Shown here: positions 5,496-50,726 of the stretch, one piece after another | Position numbering within the stretch: position 1 is the first letter of the stretch | How the letters are laid out: the number at the start of each line of letters is the position of its first letter | DNA from: Gammaproteobacteria bacterium | Lineage (GTDB): Bacteria > Pseudomonadota > Gammaproteobacteria > SZUA-229 | Direction of reading: 5' to 3' | Assembly: GCA_016744065.1 (NCBI GenBank) | Contig: JADGFA010000010.1 | Coordinates: 21,146-85,145 of the forward strand | DNA length: 64,000 nucleotides | Notes under the pieces: generated by a model | Database searches by the model: none | Told to the model about the DNA's origin: nothing | What the model saw: the letters and a program-made list of their open reading frames with translations, nothing else | Made by a program: the position numbers and the translations under genes

Positions 5496-8400
5496 TCAAG
5501 CATTATTAGCAAGGTCATTTTTAAAAACCTCTAATACCGTTGCGCCTGCTTTTTGCAGCTCAGGCAACAGTAATTTAATTTTTTCCAGTTCATTGCGCCT
5601 TGCACATGCTTCCAGCTCAGTCGCTATCCCGCATAACTGAAGGGCACTCACATTTGCCGCCACACCTTTAAGGCCGTGTACAATTTTAGATGACAGATCA
5701 CAGTCACCCGAATCAACCGCTTCCTTTAACTCATTTATACGTTCAGGTACTTCCTCTATAAAAACCTCAATAACGGTTATAAATAACTCTTTATTATTTA
5801 ATAATCGTTCTAATGTATCTTCTTTATCCCAAATTACAACTTCATTAGACTCATCATTACCCTCTTCAGAAACAGGAACATTTTGAGTTTCATTTATTTC
5901 TAAAGATAAAGCTTCGCCTAATTTTTTTAATAATTTTTTGGGATCAATTGGTTTAGATAAATAATCACTCATACCCGCATCCAGACATTTTTCCCTGTCA
6001 CCCTGCATTGCATTGGCTGTCATGGCAAAAATAGGTATATCCTGATAATTTTCACCACACTCTCCTTTGCGAATTTCACGGGTTGTTTCATAACCATCCA
6101 TTTCTGGCATCTGGCAATCCATAAGAATCAGGCTGTACATATCCGTTTCATAAAATGCATTTAAACTTTGTAATGCCTCCAGACCATTATTCGCCACATC
6201 AACAGCCAGACCAAAATCAGCTAATATACCCTGTGCCACCAGTTGATTTACATGGTTATCTTCCACTAGTAATATGCGTGTATTTTCTGGCCAGTGATAA
6301 TTTGTTTTTTCTTTTTCATCATCATGTGTAAATGTTTGCAAGTACTCATGGGTAACCAGAGGCCTGTCATTCTGCAAAGTTGATCCATCAGCAATAACAA
6401 CGGCCAATGCATTAAACAAATCTGAAGTAGTGGCGGGTTTGGGAAAATAAGCACTGAAACCTATATTTTTAAATCTATTTACATCGTCCTGAAAGCCCAT
6501 TGAGGTCATCATGACCAGCTTCATGTCACTAAAACGTTTATCTGAAATAAATATTTCACCTAATGCTTCGCCATCCATCTCTGGCATTTGCATATCAAGA
6601 AATGCAATATCAAAAACATTCTTTCCATTATTATCTATTTTTTCATTACATATCTGTAAAGCCTGCTTAGCGCTATGTGCCTCAACAACCGTTGCTCCCC
6701 AGTGCTCTAACTGCCCCCTCAAAACCTCACAGTTTGTAACATTATCATCCACTATTAATAAACTTAACTTATTTATATCAATTTTTGGAATAACCCGTTT
6801 TGACTGGCTGCTTTTTTCTAATTGAATATAAAACGTAAAAGTACTACCTTTACCCTTTACACTCTTGGCGCTAATATCACCTCCCATCAAAATACATAAT
6901 TTTCTAGCGATAGCCAGGCCCAGGCCTGTTCCTCCATACTTACGGGTTGTTGACGCATCGACCTGACTAAATGAATCAAACAAAGCAGGTAACTTGTCTT
7001 CTGGTATTCCTATACCTGTATCGCTTATATTAAACTCTACTGTTAACTGCTCATCACCATTTTCCCGTATTTCCACCTGGACAACTATTTCTCCAGTAGA
7101 TGTAAATTTAACCGCATTACCAACCAGGTTAGTTAACACCTGCCTTAAACGACTAGGGTCACCTCTTACCATTGACTGCTCTACTTTTGTTACATCCAGA
7201 ACAAGCTCTAACCCTTTTGACTGTGCAGTGTAAGCCATAGACTCGGCAAACTCACCTAACATACCACGGATATTAAAATCAATAATTTCAAGATCTAATT
7301 TATTTGCTTCAATTTTAGAAAAGTCTAAAATATCATTTATTAATGTCAGTAATGCCTGACCACTAGACTGGGCAACTTTCACCCGATGCAACTGATCACT
7401 ATCAAGCCTTGTATTTAATAATAAGCTCAACATACCAAGCACACCATTCATAGGCGTACGAATTTCATGACTCATACTGGCAAGAAATTCACTTTTGGCT
7501 ACAACAGCCTGCTCTGCTTTTTTAATTGACTCTATAAGCGCCAGTTCAGTCTGTTTCTGGTTTGTAATATCGGTACGAATAGCAATATAACTTTCAGGCT
7601 TACCCTGCTCGTTCATATATGGAACAATGGTCGTGTCAACCCAATAGAAATCACCACTTTTTGCTTTATTACAAATTTCTGAATGAAAAACGTCCCCATT
7701 TGTCAATTGATTATACATATCCTTAAAAAATGCTTTATCGTGTTTACCCGACTTAAGTAAACGATGGTTTTGTCCTATAAGCTCATCTCTTGTATAACCA
7801 GAAATATTTTCAAATAGATCATTTACAAAAGTAATTGTCCCTTTTACATCTGTAATGGCAACGATGGAATGCTGATCAAGTGCAAATTTTTGTTGATTTA
7901 AATCTTTCAGTGCTTTAACTATTTTATCTTTACTTAACTCTAATTTTTTTTCATGCTCACGGCGAACTTTCAACATATAATTAAAAGCATCAGCAAGTTT
8001 ACCTAATTCATTATTTGATTTAATATCAACGATTTCATCAGTCTGGCCTGATGCAACTTTATTACTCACCTTAACAAGAGCATATATAGGACGAAGGATA
8101 CTATACGACTTATAATATGCCATTAAAACAATGACTATGAGACTGATAAACACGCTGATTACTTGCATTTTTGCCAGTTCATTAATAGAAGAAAAAGCTT
8201 TTTCTGACTCAACTTCACTAACTAAAATCCAGTTAATATTTTTTATTTTAATTGGCTTACGAACACCTATTAGCTTTTTATTATTTTTCCCGATATACTC
8301 ATGCGGATTAAAATCCTCTTCTTCATTATTTTCAGCTTCAACATTGTGATTAAGCACCATATCCATGCTACCACCATACATAGAGCTTCTTAATTCTCCT

Positions 8401-9206
8401 TCATTCGTTATTAAGTATTGATGTAAAACACTTACATCAAATTCATCTGAAACTTTTTTCCCTCCTGATAAACCTAATACATCTAATACACCTGATACAC
8501 CTAATACATCCGATACATCTGATAAATTATCAAATATAACATCAAGTTTTATCTGTATTGCAAAGACACCTGATTTTTCACCTGAACTATTTAATATAGG
8601 CGATGTTATAAAAGCGGTTAACAGGTTATTCGAGGGCTGATAACGCTCAATACCTGAAAAAGCATCTTCGCCTGTTTCCAGTGTATATTTTACAGCCTGT
8701 GAAAATTTGGTACTGGAATATGTGCCTGTAAATAAATTGCTACCCAGATCAGATTCCTGTTCCACGCTGTACAATATATTCCCATCATTATCAATCAGCA
8801 CCAGATCATATACATAACTATAACGACGGCTAAATAAAGCCAGATCATTTCTATTTTCTTTTATACGTTTTATCCAGTCGTCACTTTTTATATAATCCGA
8901 TAAACTTTTTTTACTTTTATAAAAACCGTCAGATAATTCTTCTAATAAAATCAAATTATTTTGAGATTCAGCCTGGCTATTTAAATCTGTAAATCGATAA
9001 AAAAACCAGTTTTCAATAAATTTAGCACTCAGGCTGGAGGAGTGCATGAGTTTATCGATTGCAGAGGATTTCAGACTTACCCCCGCCTGTTGATACTCAA
9101 GCCACGACACAATAATAACAGGCATAAGACCTATTAATAAATAAGATAGAATCAACCCATTTCTGAGTGAACCATACCTCTTTTTCTTCTGATGAAATTT
9201 ATTCAC
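5496..9206 (-). CDS. Hybrid sensor histidine kinase (TM, Cache-like periplasmic domain, TM, PAS, HisKA, HATPase, REC, REC, Hpt)
   Basis: 1236 aa. Two TM segments flank a ~300-aa periplasmic region. H-box SHEIRTPMNGVLGM; G-boxes GTGLGLAIARKL. Two receiver domains (LIVDDNVTN...DMQMPEMDG and ILLVEDNHVNQ...DCQMPEMDG). C-terminal Hpt motif HGLKGVAANV. Confidence 0.85.
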   Translation of the reverse strand: MNKFHQKKKRYGSLRNGLILSYLLIGLMPVIIVSWLEYQQAGVSLKSSAIDKLMHSSSLSAKFIENWFFYRFTDLNSQAESQNNLILLEELSDGFYKSKKSLSDYIKSDDWIKRIKENRNDLALFSRRYSYVYDLVLIDNDGNILYSVEQESDLGSNLFTGTYSSTKFSQAVKYTLETGEDAFSGIERYQPSNNLLTAFITSPILNSSGEKSGVFAIQIKLDVIFDNLSDVSDVLGVSGVLDVLGLSGGKKVSDEFDVSVLHQYLITNEGELRSSMYGGSMDMVLNHNVEAENNEEEDFNPHEYIGKNNKKLIGVRKPIKIKNINWILVSEVESEKAFSSINELAKMQVISVFISLIVIVLMAYYKSYSILRPIYALVKVSNKVASGQTDEIVDIKSNNELGKLADAFNYMLKVRREHEKKLELSKDKIVKALKDLNQQKFALDQHSIVAITDVKGTITFVNDLFENISGYTRDELIGQNHRLLKSGKHDKAFFKDMYNQLTNGDVFHSEICNKAKSGDFYWVDTTIVPYMNEQGKPESYIAIRTDITNQKQTELALIESIKKAEQAVVAKSEFLASMSHEIRTPMNGVLGMLSLLLNTRLDSDQLHRVKVAQSSGQALLTLINDILDFSKIEANKLDLEIIDFNIRGMLGEFAESMAYTAQSKGLELVLDVTKVEQSMVRGDPSRLRQVLTNLVGNAVKFTSTGEIVVQVEIRENGDEQLTVEFNISDTGIGIPEDKLPALFDSFSQVDASTTRKYGGTGLGLAIARKLCILMGGDISAKSVKGKGSTFTFYIQLEKSSQSKRVIPKIDINKLSLLIVDDNVTNCEVLRGQLEHWGATVVEAHSAKQALQICNEKIDNNGKNVFDIAFLDMQMPEMDGEALGEIFISDKRFSDMKLVMMTSMGFQDDVNRFKNIGFSAYFPKPATTSDLFNALAVVIADGSTLQNDRPLVTHEYLQTFTHDDEKEKTNYHWPENTRILLVEDNHVNQLVAQGILADFGLAVDVANNGLEALQSLNAFYETDMYSLILMDCQMPEMDGYETTREIRKGECGENYQDIPIFAMTANAMQGDREKCLDAGMSDYLSKPIDPKKLLKKLGEALSLEINETQNVPVSEEGNDESNEVVIWDKEDTLERLLNNKELFITVIEVFIEEVPERINELKEAVDSGDCDLSSKIVHGLKGVAANVSALQLCGIATELEACARRNELEKIKLLLPELQKAGATVLEVFKNDLANNA

Positions 9207-9659
9207 TTGTCACCTGGATTAAAAGCAAAACGAATATCTGTAGAAATGTTCATGGATGATGGGTTTATAATACAAGTCATTTCCACACCATTGGCCTGAA
9301 AACAAATTGCAATAGATTCCAGTTTTTCAACTGCTCAACCTGAAACCTTATATAGGGCCTGCATATACTAGAGAGGCGTGCCCATTCGACAAAACATAAA
9401 GACAAAGCCCTTATCGCTTGTTGAAAAAGACTTCTGGCCCCAACAAACGCACTATATGCATTAAATAGTGCTAACAAACAGCCAAATAAGGGCCCCTTAC
9501 AACAAACTGATATTTTACGATACTGCTTCATAATACCGCTGCCATTCAGGACGACTTCATCTCTCTCATCTCAATTAGGAAAAAACACTATTGTAAGTCT
9601 AGTCGAATATATTTTTTTTCTGTGTGAATCCAAAGAATAAACAATATTAAAACAACGAA

Positions 9660-10190
9660 CTATTTATCAATATTTAAGCAAACAGGCTCAAATTCGAATT
9701 GAGAGCTCTTCATCTCCAAAAACCTTGACTTAAGTATTGCACCGAGGCGCACTCTGAGTAGATCAGCTACCAGAGGTTTATGCAGATACTCACTGGCCCC
9801 TGCTTTAAATGCCTCACTAATAATACCCACACTATTTAACCCGGATATCACTACCACTGGTATATTATAAGTAGCTGCATGACCAGAAATAAACTTACAA
9901 CCCTCAATACCATTACCGTCGGGCAGGTTAATATCCATTAAAACCAGGTCAAACTCAGGCGTAACAGATGATTGTTTTCTGTTGTAGTGCATTAATAACA
10001 TGCCTTGTTCAAGGCTCGATGCAATGGTGACAGAAGCAACTCCAATTTTCCTTAATAAGGCGACAGTTAAACGTTGAAAAGTACTGGAATCATCTATTAA
10101 AAGTATCCTGGCATCTGATAAGTATTTCGATATATCCTGAATGGGTAACATGGGATTCTCCTTCCGCTTATAAACGGACAATTTATGCAC
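9660..10190 (-). CDS. Single-domain response regulator (CheY-like receiver)
   Basis: 176 aa. LLIDDSSTFQRL...LMDINLPDGNG...KPL are receiver-domain motifs. No output domain. Confidence 0.75.
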   Translation of the reverse strand: MHKLSVYKRKENPMLPIQDISKYLSDARILLIDDSSTFQRLTVALLRKIGVASVTIASSLEQGMLLMHYNRKQSSVTPEFDLVLMDINLPDGNGIEGCKFISGHAATYNIPVVVISGLNSVGIISEAFKAGASEYLHKPLVADLLRVRLGAILKSRFLEMKSSQFEFEPVCLNIDK

Positions 10191-10432
10191 TCATTAATCG
10201 CTTACATACCTTGAAGCAAGAACCAGGCCATACACCCTGCCTTGTGTTTTATCTATAAAGAGACTACATATTAAGTTATAACAACAGATTATTTGCAAAA
10301 TGCGAAGCATATTAAAAATACACTGTGAGCTATTAAGCTATTAACAGAGCAGAATATTATGCTGAGATTTTATATATTAAAGCATCCCGATTATATGCCT
10401 CTACAAAGCCTTATTACTCCCCAATTCAAAAG

Positions 10433-10448
10433 TGGCATATTCATTGCT
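10433..10448 (+). promoter_or_regulatory. Candidate sigma-54 (RpoN) -24/-12 promoter TGGCAT-N5-TTGCT
   Basis: Sequence aaaagTGGCATattcaTTGCTgac has GG and GC spaced exactly as in the TGGCAC-N5-TTGCW consensus. It lies 45 bp upstream of the ATG at 10494. The operon it would drive ends with an NtrC-family sigma-54 activator gene. Confidence 0.5.
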
Positions 10449-10493
10449 GACAATATATAAAACCTGAATTTTTTTTCAACTTAAGGATATTGT

Positions 10494-10880
10494 ATGTTTT
10501 TCAATACACCCAGGGTACTGATCATTGATGATGATGCGAGCCTACGACGACAAATAAAATTTCGTCTTGAAAAACATGAGGGTTTAACTGTTGTTGAAGC
10601 AAAAAATGGTGAAAGTGGTCTTGTATCTGCTGATGTCGAGAATCCTGATCTCATTATTCTTGACTGGGTGATGCCAGACATACAGGGACCAGAAGTGCTT
10701 GATCAACTCAAATTGAAAAGCAATACGCAAAATATACCTATTATTATGCTCACAGGCAAAAATAAAATAGGCAATATTGAAGATGCCTTTAATCTTGGTG
10801 CTGATGCTTATCTAACCAAACCATTTTCATTGCAAAAACTGGGGGAAAAGGTACACCAGCTATTAACCTCAAAAAATTAA
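10494..10880 (+). CDS. Single-domain response regulator (CheY-like receiver)
   Basis: 128 aa. VLIIDDDASLRR...ILDWVMPDIQG...TKPF receiver motifs. First gene of a co-directional RR-SBP-HK-NtrC operon. Confidence 0.8.
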   Translation: MFFNTPRVLIIDDDASLRRQIKFRLEKHEGLTVVEAKNGESGLVSADVENPDLIILDWVMPDIQGPEVLDQLKLKSNTQNIPIIMLTGKNKIGNIEDAFNLGADAYLTKPFSLQKLGEKVHQLLTSKN

Positions 10881-10947: not shown

Positions 10948-11814
10948 ATGAAATTAATTATTACCTCATTACTACTATTCAGCCTTATGACGACAGCAGC
11001 CCAGTCTGAAATAAAGTTAAAATTTGGTGTATATACATCCGATAAACCCACAACAATGGTCAAGATGTTCCGTCCTTTGCTCGACACACTCGAAAATAAC
11101 TTAAGTATAAAACTGAAGCAACCTGTAAGTATCAGCCTCCAGGTGGCTAGAACCTATGATCAGGGGATAGAAGATCTTGTTAAGGGTAATGTTGATTTTG
11201 CTCGTATGGGCCCAGCATCTTATATTACCAGCAAAAAATTAAACCCTGATTTAAAATTACTTGCTATGGAAAGTAAAAAGGGTAGAAAAATATTTTATGG
11301 CATTATTTGTGTTCAGGAAAACAGTCCCTTCCAGTCAATCAAGGAATTAAAAGGGCATTCCTTTGCATTTGGCAATCAACGCTCTACCATTGGTCGATAC
11401 CTCTCTCAGCACCTGCTATCAACTGAAGGCGTTCATGCAAACAACCTGAGCAATTATAAATACCTTAAAAGACATGACAGGGTCGGCTATGCTGTGGGTA
11501 CAGGCCAGTTTGATGCGGGCGCCCTGAAAGAAGGAACATTCAAAAAGCTCGTAAAAAAAGGCGTAAAAATCCGTGAACTTACACGTTTTCCAAATGTAAC
11601 CAAGCCCTGGATCGCAAGCTCTAAAATGAGCCACGAGAATATGTTGGCACTAAAGGGGGCGCTACTTTCTATAACTGATAAAAATGCTCTGAAACCATTA
11701 AAGAAGCAGGGCTTTCTAAGCGCACAGGACAGTGACTATGCTGTCATTCGAAAATCAATGTTAAATAACAATGATTTTTTCAAACCAGATGAGACATTAA
11801 GTAATAACAGATAA
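10948..11814 (+). CDS. Periplasmic substrate-binding protein, PhnD/SsuA-like (phosphonate-type ABC SBP fold), probable co-sensor for the adjacent kinase
   Basis: 288 aa with signal peptide (MKLIITSLLLFSLMTTAAQS). FGVYTSDKP...DFARMGPASY resembles PhnD-family SBPs. No ABC permease or ATPase genes nearby; the next gene is a histidine kinase starting 9 bp downstream. Confidence 0.6.
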   Translation: MKLIITSLLLFSLMTTAAQSEIKLKFGVYTSDKPTTMVKMFRPLLDTLENNLSIKLKQPVSISLQVARTYDQGIEDLVKGNVDFARMGPASYITSKKLNPDLKLLAMESKKGRKIFYGIICVQENSPFQSIKELKGHSFAFGNQRSTIGRYLSQHLLSTEGVHANNLSNYKYLKRHDRVGYAVGTGQFDAGALKEGTFKKLVKKGVKIRELTRFPNVTKPWIASSKMSHENMLALKGALLSITDKNALKPLKKQGFLSAQDSDYAVIRKSMLNNNDFFKPDETLSNNR

Positions 11815-11822
11815 TATTTCAT

Positions 11823-14162
11823 ATGCGTAAATCAAAAAAAATATTGCACTCACGATGGCCTCTTTTACTACAGGTAACATTATCATTATCTGTAGTATTA
11901 ATTTTAGTAAGCCTGTTAACTGCCTACCTGACTTTTCACATCGTGAGTGATTTTGAATTTAACCGTGCAAAAGAAAAAAACATTAGCTCTCTTTCATTAT
12001 TATCAGCCACAGCAATTGATGCTGTAATCACCGAAGACATACCATTACTCAACACTATAGCAACACAAACATTAAAGCAGTCCCCGCAAATACATAGCCT
12101 TATTATAGAAAATGAGCAGGGAAAAAGAATGGTTCAACAAAGCCAGAATGATATTACACCTGATAACATGCTGCGCACTTATAGTCATAGTATTATTTTT
12201 GAAAATGAAAATTTTGGTTCCATTATTATGCAAATGGACATAAGGCCTATAAAAAAACAGATTAATAACCAGGTAACCCGTGTACAGATTTTTGTTATAT
12301 CTATTCTTTTAACGCTAACAGCGCTTATTGTAATATTGATCCACTGGCTAACTATTCGGCCTATTCGCATTATTATTCGTTACCTTAATTCTATATCTGA
12401 AAGCCAGCAACAATTACCGTTACGACTCTCTATATCCGCCAGTCGTGAACTGGAACTACTGGCCTCATCAGCCAGCGAACTATCAGAGATGATGTTACAA
12501 CGTTATCAACGTGAAAAAGAATTATTACAGACACGTGAAGAATTAATCGAAGCACACAATGAGGCCTTAAGTGCGAGTCGAGCAAAATCTGGATTTTTAG
12601 CGGCTATGAGCCATGAAATTCGCACACCCATGAATGCCGTACTGGGTATACTTGGATTACTCAGAGACACTGCTCTGGATAAACACCAGAAGCAATTGGT
12701 ACGCACAGGACGTGACTCAGGTGAATTACTGTTAACCATTATCAATGACATTCTTGATTTCTCAAAAATGGAGGCCGATAAATTACAACTGGAACAAAGT
12801 GGCTTTGACCTGCACCGCCTACTGACACATAGCGCTGAATTACTCCGACATCAGGCTGACCGAAAAGGCCTGGCGCTCATTCTACGCCTTGAACCTGTAC
12901 CCGACCTGCCGCGTTATGTTAAAGGTGACCCGGATAGACTCCGCCAGATATTAATTAACCTGATTAACAATGCAATTAAGTTTACCCCAAATGGCACTAT
13001 TACAATCAGCGCTTCAGCCACTACACTTAATTATGACAAACTAACCGCTAATGAAGAAACCTTTATTCTTAGTTGTTCCGTACAGGATACGGGGATTGGC
13101 ATCCCCGAAGACCTTCAGTATTCCCTGTTTGAAGAATTTACAATGGCAGATCAGAGCCATTCAAGAAACCATGAAGGCACTGGCCTCGGACTTGCCATAT
13201 GTAAACGTCTTGTTACATTAATGGATGGCAATATAGAGTGTTGTAGCGAACTTGGAAAAGGCAGTAATTTTGTTTTTGCTATCGAGCTTAAAACAGCCAC
13301 TGAGGAAGAATGCAGCGACCGATTTTCCATAGACGAACCACAATTAATTCCCGACAGTAATACGCGTATCCTGCTCGCTGAAGACAATCCGGCTAACCAG
13401 ATGGTGATTAAAAATATCCTTGAATATGCGGGCCTGCAAGTTGATATAGTCGCTAATGGCCGTGAAGCCGTTGAGGCCATTCGTAGCCTGCCCTATGACA
13501 TTATACTAATGGATATTTCCATGCCTGAAATGGATGGTATGACGGCTACCCGTGAAATACGCAAACTTCCCGGTGAAAAAGGTAAGCTGGCAATTGTTGC
13601 CCTGACCGCCCATGCTTTATCTGGTGATCGAGAACGCTTTATTCAGGCAGGTATGGATGATTACCTGAGCAAACCCATTGATAAAAAAGCAACCCTGCAC
13701 TGTATTGCTAGCTGGACAAATAAAAAAATTAATAAAAACCCTGAAATGACGGCTCCCATAAATCAAAATGAAGCACCTGCTAGCGATATTAGCAAAGATG
13801 AGCAGTACGAATATGTAGATGAACAGGTACTACAACAGCTTATACACGACACTGATGCAGAAATTGTGCCTGAGCTATTAACACTCTACATTGTTGATGC
13901 AAAAAAACGCAGTCAATTAATAAAACGGGCCTTTGAAGAAAAAGATATAAGAACCCTGGAATTTGAATCACATACACTGGGTAGTAGTGCAGCAGCACAT
14001 GGAAATGAAAAGTTACACCGGCAATCACGAGCTATTGAACACCTCTGTCAGGAAGGAAATCATCAGCAAGCTCTACAACAAACTGCTACATTACTTAGTA
14101 TTGCAGATGAATCTTTTCGCCTACTGACACTTCGTGTTAACAAAGGATTTAATAATGAGTGA
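11823..14162 (+). CDS. Hybrid sensor histidine kinase (2 TM, short periplasmic loop, HisKA, HATPase, REC, Hpt)
   Basis: 779 aa. H-box SHEIRTPMNAVLGILGLL; N/G boxes ...NNAIKFT, DTGIGIP, GTGLGLAICKRL. Receiver domain ILLAEDNPANQ...DISMPEMDG...KPI. C-terminal Hpt-like segment (ESHTLGSSAAAHG). Confidence 0.85.
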   Translation: MRKSKKILHSRWPLLLQVTLSLSVVLILVSLLTAYLTFHIVSDFEFNRAKEKNISSLSLLSATAIDAVITEDIPLLNTIATQTLKQSPQIHSLIIENEQGKRMVQQSQNDITPDNMLRTYSHSIIFENENFGSIIMQMDIRPIKKQINNQVTRVQIFVISILLTLTALIVILIHWLTIRPIRIIIRYLNSISESQQQLPLRLSISASRELELLASSASELSEMMLQRYQREKELLQTREELIEAHNEALSASRAKSGFLAAMSHEIRTPMNAVLGILGLLRDTALDKHQKQLVRTGRDSGELLLTIINDILDFSKMEADKLQLEQSGFDLHRLLTHSAELLRHQADRKGLALILRLEPVPDLPRYVKGDPDRLRQILINLINNAIKFTPNGTITISASATTLNYDKLTANEETFILSCSVQDTGIGIPEDLQYSLFEEFTMADQSHSRNHEGTGLGLAICKRLVTLMDGNIECCSELGKGSNFVFAIELKTATEEECSDRFSIDEPQLIPDSNTRILLAEDNPANQMVIKNILEYAGLQVDIVANGREAVEAIRSLPYDIILMDISMPEMDGMTATREIRKLPGEKGKLAIVALTAHALSGDRERFIQAGMDDYLSKPIDKKATLHCIASWTNKKINKNPEMTAPINQNEAPASDISKDEQYEYVDEQVLQQLIHDTDAEIVPELLTLYIVDAKKRSQLIKRAFEEKDIRTLEFESHTLGSSAAAHGNEKLHRQSRAIEHLCQEGNHQQALQQTATLLSIADESFRLLTLRVNKGFNNE

Positions 14163-15582
14163 TAAACCCAGCGTACTTCTCGTTGAAGATGCCGCACCTC
14201 AGGCACTGCTTTATCAACAATACCTCAAAGATGAATTAATCGATCTTGAACACGTGGACACAGGTGAAAAAGCAAAACAGTTCATTGCCTCAAACCCGCC
14301 TGAACTCATTTTACTTGATCTTAAACTACCTGATATGGATGGACAGGATATATTACACTGGATAAAAAAAGAGAAATTTCCCTGCTCTATAATTATTATC
14401 ACCGGCAACAGTTCAGTTGATATCGCAGTAGAAGTAATGCAAATAGGAGCAAATGACTTTTTAGAAAAACCTTTCAGCGCTAACCGCTTAAGAACAACAA
14501 TAAAAAATCAACTTAATCAAACACGACTACGCCACCTGGTCGATGACTACCAGGTAACATTTAAACGTAAAAGCTACCATGGCTTTATCGGTTCCTGCCT
14601 GCCCATGCAGGCTGTTTATCGAATTATCGATGCTGCTGCCACCAGTAAAGCAACCGTTTTCATAACCGGCGAAAGCGGAACAGGAAAAGAGGTATGTGCA
14701 GAAGCGATTCACAGACAGGGGCCTCGTTCAGATAAAAAATTCATTGCACTAAACTGCGGCGCAATCCCCCATGACCTAATGGAAAGCGAAATATTTGGAC
14801 ATGTCAAAGGTGCATTTACCGGGGCTTCCAGTGAACGAAAAGGCGCTGCAACATTAGCTGATGGCGGCACTTTATTTCTTGATGAAATAGGTGAGATGGA
14901 TATGGAATTGCAGACAAAGCTATTAAGATTCATTCAATCCAGTAGTTTTCAGAAAGTAGGTGGTAATAAACAGGAAAGTGTCGACATCCGTTTCATCTGC
15001 GCCACAAACCGTGATCCTTTAGAAGCGGTAACAACGGGTAAACTTAGAGAAGATTTATATTATCGTTTGCATGTCGTACCACTACACCTACCTCCCTTAA
15101 GAGAGCGCGGTAATGATATAATGGAAATCGCCCAACAATTTCTCATTACGTATGCAAAAGAAGAAAACAGATTATTCAGCGGATTTACCAACGAAGCAGA
15201 AAGCACCTTAAACAATTATAACTGGCCTGGAAATGTACGTCAGTTACAAAATGTCATTCGAAATATCACTGTATTACACAACGATAAGCGTGTTACGCAG
15301 GCCCACCTTCCCCCGCCACTTAATAACTCACAAAACATACCTGAAGCACCACCACAATCTCCGACAACACAGCCCTCAACAGAGCAAGCCGAGATAGAAA
15401 TGATAGAACAACCCACTATACCTGCGCCGGATCAGGAAAAACAGACAATAAGACCACTAGCAGATGTAGAGCGTGAAACCATAGAACGAGCCATTACTCT
15501 CTGTGACGGTAACATTCCTAAAGCAGCAGCTCTGTTAGATGTTAGCCCATCGACCATTTATCGAAAAAAACAGGGCTGGTAA
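14155..15582 (+). CDS. Sigma-54-dependent response regulator, NtrC family (REC, AAA+ sigma54-interaction, Fis-type HTH)
   Basis: Start chosen at ATG 14155 ([13 protein letters not shown]), which overlaps the upstream kinase stop (ATGAGTGA). Walker A GESGTGKE; ESELFGH and GAFTGA motif; C-terminal HTH ([15 protein letters not shown]). Confidence 0.85.
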
Positions 15583-15874
15583 CCTGACTTATCTATAAAC
15601 AACATAATTATTTCAATAATATATATACGAACCCTGATCCATAATAAACCAATAAAATAAAACTCTGACAATAAATTCTAACAGCACTTAAAATCAGACA
15701 TTGGTCATATTACTCTTGAAATTAGTTATTCTTTTACATACTATTCATACACCATTCCAACATGTCTATCCGTGGAAAAACCGTTAAATTACATGTTCGG
15801 AAAACGAATAAGCATACACTTATTCACATCGGTGAAAATATAATTTAACAAAATGATGAAAAAGGATATGTTGC

Positions 15875-18800
15875 ATGAGTGACAATAAAGCTACAGGGCA
15901 GTTTCCATTCCCAGGCGCTGCCGTTATATTACTCGCCCTCGGAGTATTCATATATACAGAAAATCCTTTTCAAACAACTCGTCCTGATGTTTCAAATAAC
16001 TTAACAACAAACACTGAAAGCGTACGCGCCAGATTATGGCAAGATCCATTTGAAGCAGTTCAACTGCATAAAGATATAAATCACAGTAACAATTCAGAAA
16101 ATATTAATAATGAAAATCACAATCATACAGAATGCTACATTGTTAATAATGAAATCATAAAAAACAAAGACAAGATAAATATTACAGCTATTAAAGAAGA
16201 CAAAAACACCTCTTTAATTACATCAACCCATGATTTCAATGACTTACACTGCAATATATTACAGAACATTAAATCAGAAACACAAAGTAATAAAAAGCAC
16301 TATGACTTACATGTAATTGCGGTCATGGTCACTGGTGGCCCTTACGCTGAAGATAAAGAACTTCGCATCAGGAGTCGCTATGCACTCACAACAGGTATCA
16401 TGAGTACTGGGTACAACCCTGTTGATTCTGAACATATAGGCTATATCGACTTTTCAAAACCGTGCATAAAACCCAACCTGTCAAACGCTTCCTCCAGACA
16501 CTCCAGCTATTGCGACTGGCCTGCCGTTATACCCTACGAGTACTTTAACCTTTCAAGCACAGGGGAAAACTGGAGTGACTCCCGTTTTTCTAAAAATATT
16601 CTAGTACTATGGTTAGATGATGAAATAATATCAAAAAACAAACCATTAGACATGTTATCAAAAATACAAGACTCTCTAACACAGAACATGAACAACAACA
16701 AACTGCTAATAACTAACAACAATACAGTTAAAAACAAAGAAAACATATCCTTAAAATTTGATGTTATTGGCCCCGCCAGCTCAACAACACTGGTAAAAAT
16801 GTACAAAAACTTAAACCAGAAATGCAATAAAATGAATGATAATTGTTCACCTGTAAAAGAGAAATACGGTGACCAGAATAAAATAAGAATATTTTCCCCC
16901 AGAGCCACATTAGACAACAAAGCAATAACACGAATAATCAACAAAAGCACATTAAGCGACAATAATGAATATAGCAATCTGAACTTTCCAGGCTTTCATC
17001 GCACAATTTCAACAGACTCACTTCTTGTAGACAGCTTACTTTGTGAAATGCTCAGAAGAGGTGTTAATCCATTCCATAAAAAAGAGTATGTTACCAATGA
17101 AAATCAAAAAATAAGTCGTATTGGTAACACCGAATGCACAGACTATTCACTATCTAAACTTAACACAAACAATAAAAATGATTATATTGCCCTGATTGGA
17201 GAGTGGGACACAACCTACTCAAGAAACTTCGAAAGATTATTCAGGGAAAAAATAATACATCAAATATGCCAAAAAAAGCCCGAAACTAACCAGCAGGCAT
17301 GTAAAGATGAGTTAAACCATAAAACAAAAAAGAGCAAACTGACAGAAAATTTTGACTGGTTATATAGCTTTAACTATTTACGCGGGCTGGATGGAGAAAT
17401 TTCAAAAAATAATGGAAATTTTATTTCATCAAAAAATAATTATGAAAAAGATAAAGATAAAAAAACATTAAGAAGATCTGCCGGCGCCAACCAGTTTGAT
17501 TACTTAAGGAGACTGGCCAAACAGATAAAAAAACTATCTGAGTCAAAAAACAACATAGGAACAGTTAGAGCAATAGGTATAGTTGGTAGCGATACATATG
17601 ATAAATTATTAATTCTTCAGGCATTAAGAGCCCATTTCCCTGATGTATTATTTTTTACAACTGATCTCGACGCAAGAATGCTCCATCAATCAGAAAACGA
17701 ATTCACAAGAAACCTTATTGTTGCATCTGCTTTTGGATTAACACCTGATCCGAAAAGCAGTGGTTACATATACCACGGCCTTGCATTTAGAGACAGCTAC
17801 CAAACATCTCTGTACAATACAGTACAAAAAACAGTCAACAACAATACTAATAAAAGCACATCCTCTTTTGACCTTATTTCACCTGTAAAAATATTTGAAA
17901 TTGGTAATAAATCCGCTATTGATTACACCCATAACAACAACCCAGATAGTCACAATAAAAATATAAAACCACTGTATATATTTTTATCAGTTAGTCTGAT
18001 TATACTGCTTCTCTTACAGTCTAATAATGCAGCTAGAATATATATTTTTACTATCTCTATAATCACATACTCAGTTCTATATTGGGCAAGCCTGTATAAC
18101 TTACCTGGTAATACAGAATTTCACTTCATGCTATCAGGAACCAGTGTGTGGCCTGCTTACATAATAAGAATGACGGCAGCTATAAGCGCCATAGTATCTA
18201 TTATTTATACAATAATCGCACTAAAAATAAATGCATTTAATATTATCGAAAAAAATAAATTGTCAGATGAGATACGTATTACACCAAAAAAATATTTTAT
18301 AAAAAAAATAAAAGAAACAGGAAATAATCATATAAAAAAATACTTATCGACTATTCTGTATTATTTTAAATGGCATTTAACCTGTGATTGTTACAATAAA
18401 AAAACGATAGAGAATAGAAAACTTAAAAAGCCGTGCTTCATTGCGCATATTCTAATTACCACCTGGGGCTGGAAAGACAGTAAATTTGATAAAATAAACC
18501 TGGATAATATATTTTATCAATATATATACCTGTCTAAGCCTCTATCGCGCCTGTCAAGAGTTACAGTAATATCAATTTTATACCTTATAATTTCAATGGG
18601 AATATTAAGCTCTTTTCCCAATATGCCAGTAACACCTTTTGTAGGAAAAATCAGTGCCGATGCCAGCTCTACAATATTATTTTCTTTATTAATACCCTAT
18701 GTTTTTCTGATTTTTTTAGTCTCTGATGTCACTCGGTTAAATTTACGCTTTGTAGAATTACTGTCTAAATATAATGTTATATGGCCTGATAGTATATTAA

Positions 18801-19327
18801 ATGCATATTGTGATAAATATGGGCTTAGTAAAAAAATAGCCATTGAAAAACTAAAACTTGATATTATTGTAAAAAGATCAAAAATTGTTGATAAATTAAT
18901 ATTTTTGCCTTTTATAATTCTCACCCTGATGATACTTTCAAGAAGCAATTACTTTGACAGGTGGGACATGCCACCTCAATTAGCTTTTATTATTTTACTA
19001 GGTGCATGTGTTGCACTTAGCAGCGCTATCAGACTTAGACGATCTGCTAGAAAAGCACGCTTTTATGCTTTAAAAAACCTTAATAAAATCTATAAAAATA
19101 TGATATATACTGAAACCAAACCTAAAAGCGATAAAGATATTCATGGCACCGATTACAGCTTAAAACTACCAGAACGCTTAAAATTAATAATAAGTGACAT
19201 TGAAAACATTTCAACTGGTCCTTTTGCTCCTATCACTAAACACCCTATAATTTCTGCGGTCGCCTTACCATTTGGTGGAGTTGGTAGCCTTTATATCATT
19301 GAATATTTATCTAAAATAAATTTATAA
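15875..19327 (+). CDS. Large Asn/Lys-rich membrane protein: N-terminal signal anchor, periplasmic type-I PBP (ANF-receptor/Venus-flytrap-like) domain, 7-8 C-terminal TM helices; function unknown
   Basis: 1150-aa ORF in a very AT-rich segment. N-terminal hydrophobic segment AAVILLALGVFIY. Motifs HVIAVMVTGGPY, FDVIGPASSTTLVKM, YIALIGEWDTTYS and RAIGIVGSDTYDKLLILQALRAHFPDVLFFTTD resemble type-I periplasmic-binding-protein beta-strand/helix signatures (the VIGPxSS hallmark). After ~aa 690 there are at least seven strongly hydrophobic helices. No kinase, GGDEF or other output domain recognisable. Confidence 0.5.
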   Translation: MSDNKATGQFPFPGAAVILLALGVFIYTENPFQTTRPDVSNNLTTNTESVRARLWQDPFEAVQLHKDINHSNNSENINNENHNHTECYIVNNEIIKNKDKINITAIKEDKNTSLITSTHDFNDLHCNILQNIKSETQSNKKHYDLHVIAVMVTGGPYAEDKELRIRSRYALTTGIMSTGYNPVDSEHIGYIDFSKPCIKPNLSNASSRHSSYCDWPAVIPYEYFNLSSTGENWSDSRFSKNILVLWLDDEIISKNKPLDMLSKIQDSLTQNMNNNKLLITNNNTVKNKENISLKFDVIGPASSTTLVKMYKNLNQKCNKMNDNCSPVKEKYGDQNKIRIFSPRATLDNKAITRIINKSTLSDNNEYSNLNFPGFHRTISTDSLLVDSLLCEMLRRGVNPFHKKEYVTNENQKISRIGNTECTDYSLSKLNTNNKNDYIALIGEWDTTYSRNFERLFREKIIHQICQKKPETNQQACKDELNHKTKKSKLTENFDWLYSFNYLRGLDGEISKNNGNFISSKNNYEKDKDKKTLRRSAGANQFDYLRRLAKQIKKLSESKNNIGTVRAIGIVGSDTYDKLLILQALRAHFPDVLFFTTDLDARMLHQSENEFTRNLIVASAFGLTPDPKSSGYIYHGLAFRDSYQTSLYNTVQKTVNNNTNKSTSSFDLISPVKIFEIGNKSAIDYTHNNNPDSHNKNIKPLYIFLSVSLIILLLLQSNNAARIYIFTISIITYSVLYWASLYNLPGNTEFHFMLSGTSVWPAYIIRMTAAISAIVSIIYTIIALKINAFNIIEKNKLSDEIRITPKKYFIKKIKETGNNHIKKYLSTILYYFKWHLTCDCYNKKTIENRKLKKPCFIAHILITTWGWKDSKFDKINLDNIFYQYIYLSKPLSRLSRVTVISILYLIISMGILSSFPNMPVTPFVGKISADASSTILFSLLIPYVFLIFLVSDVTRLNLRFVELLSKYNVIWPDSILNAYCDKYGLSKKIAIEKLKLDIIVKRSKIVDKLIFLPFIILTLMILSRSNYFDRWDMPPQLAFIILLGACVALSSAIRLRRSARKARFYALKNLNKIYKNMIYTETKPKSDKDIHGTDYSLKLPERLKLIISDIENISTGPFAPITKHPIISAVALPFGGVGSLYIIEYLSKINL

Positions 19328-39697: not shown

Positions 39698-40498
39698 TTA
39701 AACATCAGCCATCATTCTCTGAATCAGTTTTTTTACCATCTCACTTTCAAACGGTTTATCACAAATGCCTGAAACCCCTGCCTGCTCAACAGCAGCCAGG
39801 TTCCCCTGATCACCTTCGGAAGTAACCATTAAAACTGGTATTGAACGTTGGTTACTATTACCCCTGATATGCTCTAATAATGCTTTGCCATCCATCTTTG
39901 GCATATTATAATCTGTCACCACAAAATCAAAAAAATGATCATCTAACAAAGGAACCGCATTTGCACCATCATCTGCTTCGGTAATATGCTCTATTCCCAG
40001 GCCTTTTAATACACGTTTGATATGGTTTCTGGCCATGGCACTATCATCTACAATAAGCACTTTTAAATCTTCTACATTAAACTCACCCAGATCTAATGTA
40101 TCCGGATTTAAAATATCCAGCGTATTATATAAACCCCTCTTTAGCTGAGTAGAATTAAAGGGCTTAGGTAAAATTCCCGTAACACCTGCCTGCTTTATTG
40201 GATCAATATAATCAAAACCAGTTTCACTGGAAATAAGCATAAATGAGATATCAATAAGATCTTCATCATGACGCATTTTATGAACTAAATCTGTTGCCGT
40301 CATATCAGGCAAATGCATTGCGCTAATCACCAGATCAGGATTAAACTGACGCATGGTTTCCAATGCAGAACAACCATCAGCAACAATATCAAAATGGTTA
40401 ATACCCACTGCTTTCAATTCACGGTGTATAAATCTGGCCTGTGATTTAGAGGGCTCCACCATCAGCACATAAAGCTCTGTCAGCGATTTTTCATACAT
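39698..40498 (-). CDS. Response regulator with two tandem receiver domains, no output domain
   Basis: 266 aa. REC1 around VLMVEPSKSQ...SAMHLPDMT; REC2 around LIVDDSAMARNH...TDYNMPKMDG...DKPF. Confidence 0.7.
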   Translation of the reverse strand: MYEKSLTELYVLMVEPSKSQARFIHRELKAVGINHFDIVADGCSALETMRQFNPDLVISAMHLPDMTATDLVHKMRHDEDLIDISFMLISSETGFDYIDPIKQAGVTGILPKPFNSTQLKRGLYNTLDILNPDTLDLGEFNVEDLKVLIVDDSAMARNHIKRVLKGLGIEHITEADDGANAVPLLDDHFFDFVVTDYNMPKMDGKALLEHIRGNSNQRSIPVLMVTSEGDQGNLAAVEQAGVSGICDKPFESEMVKKLIQRMMADV

Positions 40499-47040: not shown

Positions 47041-48087
47041 CTAATCATTAAGCAATAAATCTTCTGAAAAGCCATGACTCTCAAGTATTTTACGCAGGTG
47101 ACGTAATGCATCCATTTGAATCTGACGCACACGCTCGCGTGTTACACCTAATTCACGACCCACTTCTTCCAGTGTTGTTCGCTCATAACCATGCAAGCCA
47201 AAACGGCGTACAACAACCTGACGCTGCTTATCATCCAGTTGATTCAACCACATTTCAAGATTTGCCATGACATCTTCATTCTGTAAAATTGAAGATGGCT
47301 CAGGATTGGCCTGATCTGGAATAATTTCCAGAAGTGGACGATCATTTTCTTTACCGACAGGTACATCTACGGATGAAACACGATCACGTAAACCCAGCAT
47401 TTTTTCAACATTTGCTACAGGTCTATCAACCAGTTTCGCAATTTCATCTGCTGTTGGTTCATGCTCTATGGTTTGTTCTAGTTGACGAGATGCTCGCAGA
47501 TAAACATTAAGTTCTTTGATCACATGTATGGGTAATCGTATTGTGCGAGTTTGATTCATTAATGCACGCTCGATGGTCTGACGTATCCACCAGGTTGCAT
47601 AAGTTGAGAAACGGAAACCTTTTTCCGGGTCAAACTTTTCTACTGCTCTGATTAAACCTAAATTGCCCTCTTCAATCAGATCAAGTAATGCTAAACCTCG
47701 GTTCATATAGCGTCGTGCTATTTTTACCACCAGTCGAAGATTGCATTCAATCATCTTCTTACGCGCTGACCCGACCCCTTTTCGAGACAGACGTGAATAA
47801 TAAACTTCTTCTTTTGCAGTTAGTAATGATGAGAACTCAATCTCGCGTAGATACAAACGAGTTGCATCCATTTCCTTTCTATTGACACTACCTGTGGTAT
47901 ATTTTTTCTTCTCCGTCGTGCCTTTCGTTCCTGCCTTAACTTTCCCTTCCTTTTTAGGGCTAACTTTTAATTCCAGTTCTTCGTCTTTGACAATATCGTC
48001 CAGACACATATCCTTATCATCTTCTTCGATCTTTACTCCTGCTTGATTAATATCTTCTGGTAGTTTTTTTTCACAGATTGCAGCCAT
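47041..48087 (-). CDS. rpoS: RNA polymerase sigma factor RpoS (sigma-S)
   Basis: Near-identity to E. coli RpoS over regions 2-4: [66 protein letters not shown]. Conserved rpoS-nlpD-pcm-surE synteny. Confidence 0.95.
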
Positions 48088-48365
48088 GTTTTAGCCCTCC
48101 CCACGTGAGCCAGGTTATTATAATTTAGGTCCAAATTGCTATATATAAGTTCCTCGTTATATTAGAAAAGTATAATAAGTCTATTTAAATCACTAACTTA
48201 TGCTTCCTTTGTAATCCACTTTAAACCATAAAACAAGAGAAATATGATTTTTTTTGCATCTTTTATCTGATTTTGGTCTTTTTTATCTGTTTTTATTTGA
48301 CAAATACCCCATTTGAATGAATTACTCAAATTTTTTTAAGAGTCTGAAAACTTAGATCCAAGAAA

Positions 48366-49439
48366 CTAAGAGCCTGGAAGATAACGCAACGGATTCACAG
48401 GTTTTCCATTTCGGCGAATTTCAAAATGAAGCTGGGGTTTAAGATCGAGCTTACCCATTTTTGCAATAGACTGACCTCGCTTTACCGTATCACCCTCTTT
48501 TACCAGTAACGATTGATTATAAGCATAGGCACTTAAAAATGAATGGCTGTGCTTTATAATGACCAGATTGCCATAGTTAATTAATCCATTACCACTGTAT
48601 ACCACTGTGCCCGCTGCTGCTGCTTTAACTGACTGACCCAATTTACCTGTAATACCAATCCCTTTTCTGGACGGCTCATTGGCCTTATAAGTTTTGACAA
48701 CCCGACCCTTCACTGGCCAGTACCAACGATCGACTTTAACAGGCAGATTTTTTTTACTGGTAGAGGCAATCACTGGTGGCGCATGCTTTATCACATTAAC
48801 TTGCGGTGAACGCCGCAGAGGACTGGTCACCGGCTTTACCGTTGCTACAGATGTTGATTGCCCCCCCAGTGAGTTCGTTGTTGGACTCAGGCGTAATCTC
48901 TGCCCCGGCTTTAATGCATAAGGAGAGCGCAAATGATTCCATCTGGCTAACTGGTGATGACTGTAACCTTCTCGTTGGGCAATGCCATAAAGCGTCTCGT
49001 TTTTTTGCACCGTAACATGAGTCGGTTTTTTTCTCTTAACATTAGCTGAAATAACCACAGCTTCCTGTTCAGGTTTTTCAATCACAACCACCTGGCCGGT
49101 TTCTGGTTCAGTTAACACCTGGGGTCTGATTTCATCTGATGTTGTACCGTCCTTATCCGCCGGCTGCAAACGCAGACGCTGTCCGGGATAAATCGCATAG
49201 GGGGGTGATATATTATTCACCTGGGCTATCTGACGAAAGTCTTTTTCATAACGCCAGGCGATAGAATATAAAGTATCTCCGCGCTTTACAGTATATCCCT
49301 GGGGGTCCCAGTGTTTAGGCACTTCACCACAGGCAGATAAAAGCGTCACCAATAAAATAAGTGTAAGCCTGATTTGATAAACCTGACGTCTCAAATTATT
49401 TAATCCAGATTTACATGTACTTATGAAATAAAAAACCAA
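48366..49439 (-). CDS. nlpD: Murein hydrolase activator NlpD (lipoprotein, 2 LysM + M23 peptidase domain)
   Basis: Lipobox LLSAC. Two LysM repeats (YTVKRGDTLYSIAWRY; VTVQKNETLYGIAQREG). C-terminal M23/LytM domain. The true start may be a non-ATG codon downstream, because the ORF overlaps yqaA by 29 bp. Confidence 0.85.
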   Translation of the reverse strand: MVFYFISTCKSGLNNLRRQVYQIRLTLILLVTLLSACGEVPKHWDPQGYTVKRGDTLYSIAWRYEKDFRQIAQVNNISPPYAIYPGQRLRLQPADKDGTTSDEIRPQVLTEPETGQVVVIEKPEQEAVVISANVKRKKPTHVTVQKNETLYGIAQREGYSHHQLARWNHLRSPYALKPGQRLRLSPTTNSLGGQSTSVATVKPVTSPLRRSPQVNVIKHAPPVIASTSKKNLPVKVDRWYWPVKGRVVKTYKANEPSRKGIGITGKLGQSVKAAAAGTVVYSGNGLINYGNLVIIKHSHSFLSAYAYNQSLLVKEGDTVKRGQSIAKMGKLDLKPQLHFEIRRNGKPVNPLRYLPGS

Positions 49440-49989
49440 TAATTGCTAAAACAATTATTAGCCACCCCAACCATTCGATATATTTACGCACCACAGGTTC
49501 CATTTTAGGCCCAGCCCAGGCCATTAACAGCGCAATCATATAAAAATGTGCAGCCCGACCAATTAATGAAACCAGCAAAAAGGGTATAAAAGACATGGAA
49601 AGCATGCCCGCAGTTAGCGTAAATATTTTAAAAGGTGCAGGCGTGAATGCCCCAATACCCACTGCAAGTACACCATATTTAACAAATTCTGCACGGGCAT
49701 CTTCAAGTTGAGGTAACCAGCCCATTTCTGTTATCCAGGGTTCAATAATACTCATGGCACCCCAGCCTAATAAGTAACCTATAGCCGCACCCAAAACGGA
49801 CATAATAGTCGTAATGGTTGCCAGACGTATCGCCTTATCCGGTGTCGCTATGACCATAGGAATCATTAATAATGCAGTGGGCAAAGGAAATATAAAAGAT
49901 TCAAAAAGACTAACACCCACCAGATATCGTTCACGATGAGGATGCTCAGCCCAACGCATTGCTCGGTTATATAATCCTGCAAAAATCAA
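49411..49989 (-). CDS. DedA/YqaA-family inner-membrane protein
   Basis: 192 aa with multiple [16 protein letters not shown] is typical of the VTT/DedA (YqaA) domain. Confidence 0.6.
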
Positions 49990-50660
49990 CTAATTGCTCC
50001 ATTTAATAAAGGCACAAATTTAACTGCATCTAATTCTTCTTCGACAAACTGATCAGCCTCACGGGTAATCAATAATAATTTTTGCACCGCTTGCTGCCCC
50101 CCAACAGGAATAATCATTATTCCTCCGATATCAAGCTGATCAAGCAAGCCCTGTGGCACCGTTTCTGGCGCAGCCGTAACAATAATAGCTTTATAAGGGG
50201 CGTGTTGTGGCCAGCCCCAGGAACCGTCTGAATGCTTAAGTGAAATGTTATGTATGCCAAGCATATGATAACGTTCACGAGCCTGGGTTTGCAGTGCAAC
50301 AATACGCTCAACAGAGTAAACTTTGGGCACTAGCTGAGATAATATCGCGGCCTGGTAACCTGAACCTGTACCCACTTCCAGCACGGCATCTGGTATACCC
50401 CGACTCAGTAATATCTCTGTCATTTTTGCCACAATAAAGGGCTGGGAGATTGTCTGGCCATGACCTATAGGTAATGCAGAATCTTCATATGAGCGTGAGC
50501 TCATTGCTTCATCTACAAATAAATGCCTAGGCATAGAGCGCATCACATTCAGCACTTTTTCGTCCTGTATACCCTTGCTGCGTAACCGATCAATTAATCG
50601 GTCGCGGGTCCGCTGGGACGTCATGCCTATACCCTGCATGCGGGGATCAGATAAATTCAC
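49986..50660 (-). CDS. pcm: Protein-L-isoaspartate O-methyltransferase
   Basis: 224 aa. [16 protein letters not shown] motif. Similarity to Pcm throughout. Position between surE and nlpD. Confidence 0.9.
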
Positions 50661-50726
50661 TCTAAAAACCTGGTTGTATGTGACCCATTGAAAATCAATA
50701 GATTTATATATTACTCAATATCAGTG

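Follow-up and report, generated by a model that had tools for sequence, protein, structure and literature searches.

Circuits in which a sigma-54 enhancer-binding protein (EBP) controls its own operon, or in which divergent promoters share one enhancer, are well known. The textbook case is glnAp2-ntrBC, where the EBP raises its own level via a sigma-54 promoter upstream of its operon, and in E. coli the divergent sigma-54 promoters of zraP-zraSR (hydHG) share activator sites, with one arm encoding the two-component system. In Vibrio fischeri, the hybrid kinase gene sypF lies between sypE and sypG in the symbiosis polysaccharide (syp) locus, and phosphorylated SypG drives four sigma-54 syp promoters (PMC3843225). 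The syp locus and its regulation by SypF and SypG have also been treated in later work, according to which the signals that control SypF are little known (PMC12369376). The upstream activating sequences (UAS) of LuxO and SypG have been quoted as TTGCAWWWTGCAA and TTCTCANNNTGMDWN, respectively, and the two proteins share UAS sites at qrr1 (PMC10162802). Here we analysed a stretch of 64,000 nucleotides from a gammaproteobacterial contig (JADGFA010000010.1; the whole stretch is called the window below), in which a sigma-54 -24/-12 element, named P(+), stands in front of an operon for a receiver (REC)-only response regulator, a PhnD-like periplasmic solute-binding protein (SBP), a hybrid histidine kinase (HK) and an EBP. 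We found that the 342-bp region 10152-10493 upstream of this operon is very probably a bidirectional sigma-54 control region, in which two promoters flank one LuxO/SypG-type dyad. The system appears to be an uncharacterised sigma-54 circuit of the LuxO/SypG type, distinguished by SBP coupling and by bidirectional REC arms, and its mechanism as such is not surprising. The features are collected in Table 1.

The original prediction had put a sigma-54 element at 10433-10448, with 45 nt between it and the first operon gene, and both the element with its correct GG/GC spacing and its distance to the gene were confirmed from sequence and coordinates. The GG is at 10434-10435 and the GC at 10446-10447, which is the canonical GG-N10-GC separation, and P(+) agreed with TGGCACG-N4-TTGCW at 10 of the 12 specified positions, the mismatches being C to T at -21 and G to A at -20. 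It is intergenic and on the coding strand, and the operon start, ATG 10494, has an AAGGA Shine-Dalgarno sequence 6 nt before it. The pattern TGGCAY-N5-TTGCW was matched exactly only once in the 64 kb, at P(+), and 18 of 100 shuffled windows had at least one exact match. Sites with at least 10/12 matches numbered four in the window versus about five expected from a background rate of 0.042 per strand-kb, which was measured on 3 Mb of related loci; two of them, 29683 (-) and 35147 (-), are intragenic and were judged to be chance matches. No sigma-70-like site with at least 9/12 matches was found on the + strand in 10190-10494, which is a weak negative; the overall sigma-70-like counts were at shuffle level. 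The significance of P(+) therefore comes from its intergenic position on the correct strand and, above all, from its conservation in orthologous loci.

For this comparison, close SBP homologues were aligned and 160 related loci (L numbers below) were fetched from genome and metagenome collections. An orthologous module was called by tblastn with the four operon proteins, if the kinase identity was at least 44% and/or the activator was present. An element with at least 9/12 matches and invariant GG/GC was found 36-147 nt before the first module gene in L001, L002, L003, L006, L007, L008, L009, L019, L082, L083, and L109, and in L004 and L005, which are both Thiodiazotropha loci and have a STAS gene at the head of the operon, the -24/-12 element is upstream of that gene. 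The chance of a site of at least 9/12 was 0.23 per strand-kb, or about 0.06 per 250-nt upstream region. The 16-mers of the orthologous elements vary between loci in the spacer and at non-critical positions, and in the intergenic alignment, with a mean column identity of 46%, three conserved islands stand out, which are the divergent promoter P(-) described below, the dyad and P(+). Because the element is conserved in about 14 other loci while its flanks have diverged, and no sigma-70-like site was detected on the + strand, P(+) is highly likely to be a real sigma-54 promoter. The -24/-12 element is absent upstream of the module in L084, L085, and L086-L089, so this promoter type is not obligatory for the family.

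Scanning the whole window also gave a second -24/-12 element, P(-), on the opposite strand of the same spacer. The distance from its end to ATG 10151, the start of a divergent REC-only gene (dREC), is 63 nt, and the predicted transcription start site (TSS) is near 10204; the ATG, whose start and frame were checked, is preceded by a strong Shine-Dalgarno sequence, GGAAGGAG. Of the four best sigma-54-like sites in 128 strand-kb, two thus fall into the 342-bp spacer, each facing its gene. A dREC ortholog with 40-65% identity is encoded in divergent orientation in L001, L008, L019, L082, L086-89, and L109, and counterparts of P(-) face the ortholog in L001 (TGGCGCACTTCTTGCC), L082 (TGGCGCACTTTTTGCT), L109, and L019; the one in L008 is weaker. 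The original prediction was correct about P(+) and had missed this second promoter.

Between the two promoters lies an inverted repeat, the candidate enhancer. Its 13-mer TTGCAAAATGCGA at 10293-10305 agrees with the LuxO UAS at 12 of 13 positions, and compared with the SypG motif it has two mismatches, both in the TTCTCA half. Nowhere else in the window is TTYGCA-N3-TGCRAA matched exactly, and the intergenic region has no other LuxO-type box with at least 7/10 matches. In L001 and L082 the same dyad is extended to about 28 conserved bp (ATTTGCAAAATGCGAAGCAAAATAAAAAT), in L003 it is a perfect palindrome, and variants are present in L008, L019, L083, L109, L006, and L004/5. In 7 of 15 loci a TTGCA-N3-TGCAA box with at least 9/10 matches was found at 30-350 nt upstream of P(+), versus 0.9% of shuffled upstream regions. 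In the window, the dyad is 127 nt upstream of P(+), and from its centre it is 135 nt to the GG of P(+) and 70 nt to that of P(-). The original prediction had suggested looking upstream for activator dyads, and this check was borne out by a conserved repeat of LuxO UAS type, although the dyad itself and the Syp/LuxO affiliation had been missed. Other boxes with at least 9/10 matches in the window (11363, 37888, 58315, 59200, and 63368) lack an accompanying -24/-12 element and were judged to be chance matches, not regulon dyads.

The gene content of the operon, as well as the gaps of 67, 8 and -8 nt between its genes, was as originally described, by Pfam and coordinates: 67 nt separate the REC and SBP genes, 8 nt separate the SBP and kinase genes, and the kinase and EBP genes overlap by 8 nt (ATGAGTGA). 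The likely start of the EBP is ATG 14155, and the overlap suggests that its translation is coupled to that of the kinase gene. In L001, L002, L003, L008, L082, L086-89, and L109 the same place is taken by an ortholog of the REC protein, with 58-66% identity. The EBP has an intact receiver acceptor motif, Walker A/B motifs, GAFTGA motif and C-terminal helix-turn-helix. GAFTGA occurred only once in the six reading frames of the window, so the operon EBP is the only sigma-54 activator in the 64 kb, in agreement with the original prediction. Among NCBIfam models LuxO (NF041946) was the best match with 630.7 bits, followed by NtrC with 387 bits, and the best match among solved structures was LuxO (5ep0, 3e-138), with NtrC1 at 8e-91. 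The LuxO score is below the equivalog cutoff of 800, so the protein belongs to the LuxO family and is not LuxO itself; LuxO was also rejected on the absence of luxU and qrr. The operon has no separate Hpt gene, the Hpt domain being fused to the kinase, and Rfam RNAs such as Qrr gave no match at E<=1 in 9000-10600.

The SBP is an orphan, with no ABC permease or ATPase gene adjacent to it. Its nearest solved structures were PhnD/PtxB (1e-22 to 1e-19), with AioX at 3e-4 and ArrX at 3e-3, so that its identification as AioX/ArxX was rejected. The kinase has a first transmembrane segment, a periplasmic loop of about 110 aa and a second transmembrane segment ahead of HisKA-HATPase-REC-Hpt, and most of the 160 related loci have a kinase gene next after that for the SBP. 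Since the orphan SBP has a signal peptide, the kinase has a periplasmic loop and their genes are adjacent, it is reasonable to suppose that the two form a three-component sensor.

The link to the syp locus came from the related loci. In L083 the SBP-HK-EBP genes are preceded by genes for STAS, OmpA-like, Poly_export/SLBB (Wza-like), AAA_31, and HATPase_c_2-REC-SpoIIE proteins, which in gene order and domain content correspond to sypA-sypE of V. fischeri. The same kind of genes precedes the module in L007, with 49-74% identity to L083, and also in L001, L002, L008, L086-89, and L109, about eight related lineages in all. By gene order, these orthologous modules belong to a polysaccharide locus of Syp type found outside Vibrionaceae, in which an SBP gene has been inserted ahead of the sypF-like kinase. 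The kinase and EBP are best described as SypF/SypG-like, because their orthologs follow sypA-E-like genes at the sypF-sypG position; this label rests on synteny together with the LuxO-family score. The PhnD-like SBP and the REC-only proteins are two additions not known from V. fischeri, and our search of the literature for an SBP partner of SypF, for syp in sulfur-oxidising symbionts or for this arrangement found nothing relevant. The 64-kb window itself has no syp-like structural genes, and the neighbours of the module are another hybrid kinase and housekeeping genes.

Dyad and promoter pairs were also found at genes beside the modules: at a NAD-epimerase gene in L019 (8887/8982), in L021 (4672/4783), at the sypA-like STAS gene in L083 (43/141), and at downstream sites in L004/L005. 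The equivalent NAD-epimerase gene in L001 has a promoter pair without a clear dyad (12313/12473), and in L004 a sigma-54 promoter without a clear dyad precedes a REC-GGDEF gene. The NAD-epimerase, STAS, PapD-like chaperone-region, and REC-GGDEF genes beside the modules are candidate regulon members, and the recurring combination of dyad and promoter would suit an activator that acts locally on a small regulon, its own operon included. Further sigma-54-like promoters were seen beside modules in L002 (3050/3285), L004 (10624 and 11873), and L005 (12104). Several of the additional promoters in L001, L002, L004, L005, L019, and L021 have LuxO-type dyads.

From what is established for the family, we infer sigma-54 use, binding of the EBP to the dyad, coupling of SBP and kinase and a phosphate-sink role of the REC proteins, and the following circuit is proposed. 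The periplasmic PhnD-like SBP, with or without its ligand, would modulate the SypF-like kinase via the periplasmic loop, and phosphoryl groups would pass from His to Asp to Hpt and on to the receiver domain of the LuxO/SypG-like activator. The activator would assemble at the dyad and, with DNA looping, remodel the closed complexes of sigma-54 holoenzyme at P(+) and P(-). In this way the module would increase the amounts of the sensor, kinase and activator that it encodes, which is positive autoregulation. The two single-domain receivers would be raised too and might, speculatively, drain phosphoryl groups from Hpt and so damp the circuit. The wider output is probably a Syp-type exopolysaccharide/biofilm programme encoded elsewhere in the genome, because related genomes have the module beside sypA-E-like genes and promoters with sigma-54 elements and dyads.

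Autoregulation by the EBP encoded in the operon is the most economical reading of the locus, and we put its probability at roughly 0.65. The main argument for it is indirect, namely that the type of the box matches the subfamily of the activator. Positive autoregulation had already been proposed in the original prediction, and the conserved promoter, the LuxO-type dyad and the LuxO/SypG-like EBP in the operon all point the same way.

Several observations weigh against this reading, and the first of them concern the identity of the activator. In L003, L008, and L109 the promoter is kept before REC-SBP-HK and no EBP gene follows the kinase in the available sequence (no GAFTGA), and L003 and L008 also have a recognisable dyad, so an EBP encoded in trans can serve such promoters. 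Both promoters and the dyad might then be real while another EBP of the LuxO/SypG family, encoded elsewhere, is the activator, and the operon would be the target of a cascade and not autoregulated. This alternative, which survives best, we consider unlikely. Only 64 kb of the genome is visible, and the UAS used by SypG and by LuxO overlap at qrr1 (PMC10162802), so the box type does not single out one paralog and, the UAS of the LuxO family being shareable, a paralog elsewhere could be the real activator. Nevertheless, the EBP gene overlaps the kinase gene and is the only one of its kind in the window, a cognate kinase-regulator pair in one operon is the usual arrangement, and in the loci whose operon includes the EBP (L001, L019, L083, and L004/5) it comes with dyad and promoter, and dyad-bearing promoters cluster around it.

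Other points against autoregulation concern the dyad. Its distance to P(+) varies from 70 to 294 nt among the loci (135 nt in the window and 161 nt in L001 and L082), and only its distance to the GG of P(-) is tight among the closest relatives, at 70-74 nt for the window, L001, and L082, which may mean that P(-) is what the dyad mainly serves. The spacer contains a single dyad, and many EBPs use two or more sites. Between dyad and P(+), sites for integration host factor were found only as 8/9 matches that are not conserved. The fixed spacing to P(-), the variable spacing to P(+) and the single site would also suit a dyad that is a repression operator and not an enhancer of P(+), with negative or mixed feedback on the operon, and in Vibrio harveyi LuxO sites in the qrr1-luxO intergenic region mediate autorepression of luxO. 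An operator is nevertheless quite improbable here, as the dyad overlaps neither the -24/-12 elements nor any detected sigma-70-like promoter on the + strand, and loci without the divergent gene (L083, L006, L005, and L003) still have a dyad before P(+).

The remaining points against autoregulation concern the promoter and its sigma factor. Judged inside the window alone, P(+) is only weakly above chance. In L086-L089 the order REC-SBP-HK-EBP is kept at 59-66% identity (the L086 and L087 sequences are identical) and the activator gene is retained, and both promoters and the dyad are absent; the intergenic region there is shorter and has a different conserved motif. The gene rpoN is not among the genes of the 64-kb window, so its presence in the genome is only implied by the intact EBP. 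A chance -24/-12 match in AT-rich intergenic DNA, with transcription of the operon from a promoter of sigma-70 type, is hardly credible: the rate of exact matches in shuffled windows, the background-level count of sites, the two off-consensus positions and the L086-L089 operons, evidently expressed without the element, would allow it, but the element stands at the same place in more than ten diverged loci whose flanks are not conserved, shares 342 bp with another element in the correct orientation and with a LuxO-type dyad that is conserved, and has no sigma-70-like competitor of at least 9/12 on the + strand upstream of the operon.

Table 1 Features of the control region and operon in the window, and stretches of related loci with sypA-E-like genes and the module
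Feature	Position	Strand	Basis or remark
P(+), sigma-54 -24/-12 element TGGCATATTCATTGCT	10433-10448	+	predicted TSS near 10459
P(-), second sigma-54 -24/-12 element TGGCCTGGTTCTTGCT, 10/12	10230-10215	-	whole-window scan
Candidate enhancer (UAS), inverted repeat TTTGCA-AAA-TGCGAA TTTGCAAAATGCGAA	10292-10306	.	conserved dyad
dREC, divergent REC-only gene, 163 aa, presumed target of P(-)	9660-10151	-	Pfam Response_reg
REC-only response regulator, 128 aa, first operon gene	10494-10880	+	Pfam Response_reg 1.3e-27
PhnD/PtxB-like periplasmic SBP, 288 aa, signal peptide	10948-11814	+	Pfam Phosphonate-bd 3.8e-45
Hybrid histidine kinase, 779 aa, HisKA-HATPase-REC-Hpt	11823-14162	+	Pfam
LuxO/SypG-like sigma-54 EBP, 475 aa, REC-Sigma54_activat(AAA+)-HTH_8	14155-15582	+	Pfam
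sypA-E-like genes and module, L083	183-5738		
sypA-E-like genes and module, L007	332-5845		
sypA-E-like genes and module, L001	1-3610		
sypA-E-like genes and module, L008	1-4312		
sypA-E-like genes and module, L109	331-4771		

Compared with SypF-SypG of V. fischeri, the window has the same hybrid kinase of HisKA-HATPase-REC-Hpt type followed by a LuxO-like sigma-54 activator, and its orthologs stand at the sypF-sypG position after sypA-E-like genes. The dyad is built like those upstream of syp promoters, from a half-site, N3 and a TGC-containing half-site, and as sypF and sypG are described to lie inside the locus that SypG regulates, the regulator genes here would also lie inside the locus that they regulate. 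Unlike in syp, a PhnD-like SBP gene precedes the kinase, there are one or two additional REC-only genes, the dyad resembles the LuxO box (12/13) more than the SypG motif (two mismatches), and the window module does not follow sypA-E, with no syp structural genes in 64 kb. LuxO/qrr resembles the window in providing the best family and structure match and a UAS agreeing at 12/13 positions, and also in a regulator gene that adjoins a divergent sigma-54 region with a box. It differs in that the window lacks luxU, and Qrr in 9000-10600, that the divergent promoter faces a protein gene, and that the gene of the window activator is itself behind a sigma-54 promoter.

With zraP-zraSR the window shares back-to-back -24/-12 promoters with a site or sites between them, kinase/EBP autoregulation (in the window as proposed above) and, on the opposite arm, a small accessory gene. 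There is no relationship in sensor, ligand or activator subfamily, ZraR scoring well below LuxO against the window EBP, and the accessory gene encodes a REC-only protein here and a periplasmic chaperone in zra. AioXSR/ArxXSR, which control arsenite oxidase, also have an orphan SBP gene of the Phosphonate-bd family beside a sensor kinase and a sigma-54 EBP, whereas the window kinase is a hybrid with REC and Hpt and the window has no aio/arx genes. Unlike NtrC, the window EBP scored 387 bits with the NtrC model versus 631 with LuxO, its operon has no nitrogen-assimilation genes, and the NtrC-type UAS, TGCACC-N5-GGTGCA, differs from the dyad.

An isolated motif match has thus become a defined and conserved control region, with two promoters and one enhancer, of an uncharacterised signalling module, and the module can be assigned to the LuxO/SypG branch of sigma-54 activators. 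The combined signature of dyad and promoter could be used to find the regulon of the module in complete genomes, and for SypF-type kinases of bacteria related to marine symbionts the orphan PhnD-like SBP offers itself as a candidate ligand sensor. A wider and tentative reading, which we hold to be doubtful, is that the module is an "SBP-coupled Syp" core, widespread in marine gammaproteobacteria including relatives of sulfur-oxidising symbionts, with the PhnD/PtxB-like SBP as its ligand input. It is similarly doubtful, under the same reading, that a LuxO-box node would combine positive feedback on sensor, kinase and activator with negative feedback by the two phosphate-sink receivers. If this were true, the SBP would be a direct experimental handle on the chemical cue for Syp-type biofilm polysaccharide.

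Some further observations were made on related loci. In L086 (5334-5537), L088 (5357-5581), and L089 (5342-5566) the intergenic regions share TTTGTACAATGGATTCA about 55-70 nt before the first gene, which may be a replacement promoter or operator. In Photobacterium spp. (L026, L038, L040, and L041) a sigma-54-like sequence, TGGTCTGTTTATTGCT, stands 34-35 nt before the SBP gene, and L148/L149 have a conserved sigma-54-like element, TGGCCTAGATATTGCT, at a fixed distance; all of these are paralogous SBP-kinase pairs in loci without an EBP gene. Among the loci without a downstream EBP gene, 29 of 139 had a site of at least 9/12 within 250 nt versus about 6% expected. Because of this excess and the conserved elements, sigma-54 control may be common in the SBP-kinase family.

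On the other side of dREC, about 450 nt (9207-9659) without a convincing gene separate it from a large kinase gene (5496-9206, -), which encodes a 1236-aa dCache-HAMP-PAS hybrid kinase. This stretch has only an 84-aa open reading frame (ORF), with homologues solely in identical contigs, and neither an Rfam match nor a terminator-like site was found in it. Directly downstream of the operon, an ORF of 1150 aa (15875-19327, +) matched no Pfam or NCBIfam model; no sigma-54-like site precedes it, and a few sigma-70-like matches were found in 15665-15872. The other genes of the window include ftsK, lolA, trxB, alanine dehydrogenase, dnaE, and Lol-type ABC genes, and a surE-pcm-nlpD(LysM/M23)-rpoS cluster lies at 47041-51473 (-), which together with dnaE, ftsK, and lolA indicates an ordinary proteobacterial chromosome, with 39% G+C. 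At 39698-40498 (-) a 266-aa protein with two receiver domains and no output domain is encoded, which is a stand-alone phosphorelay component.

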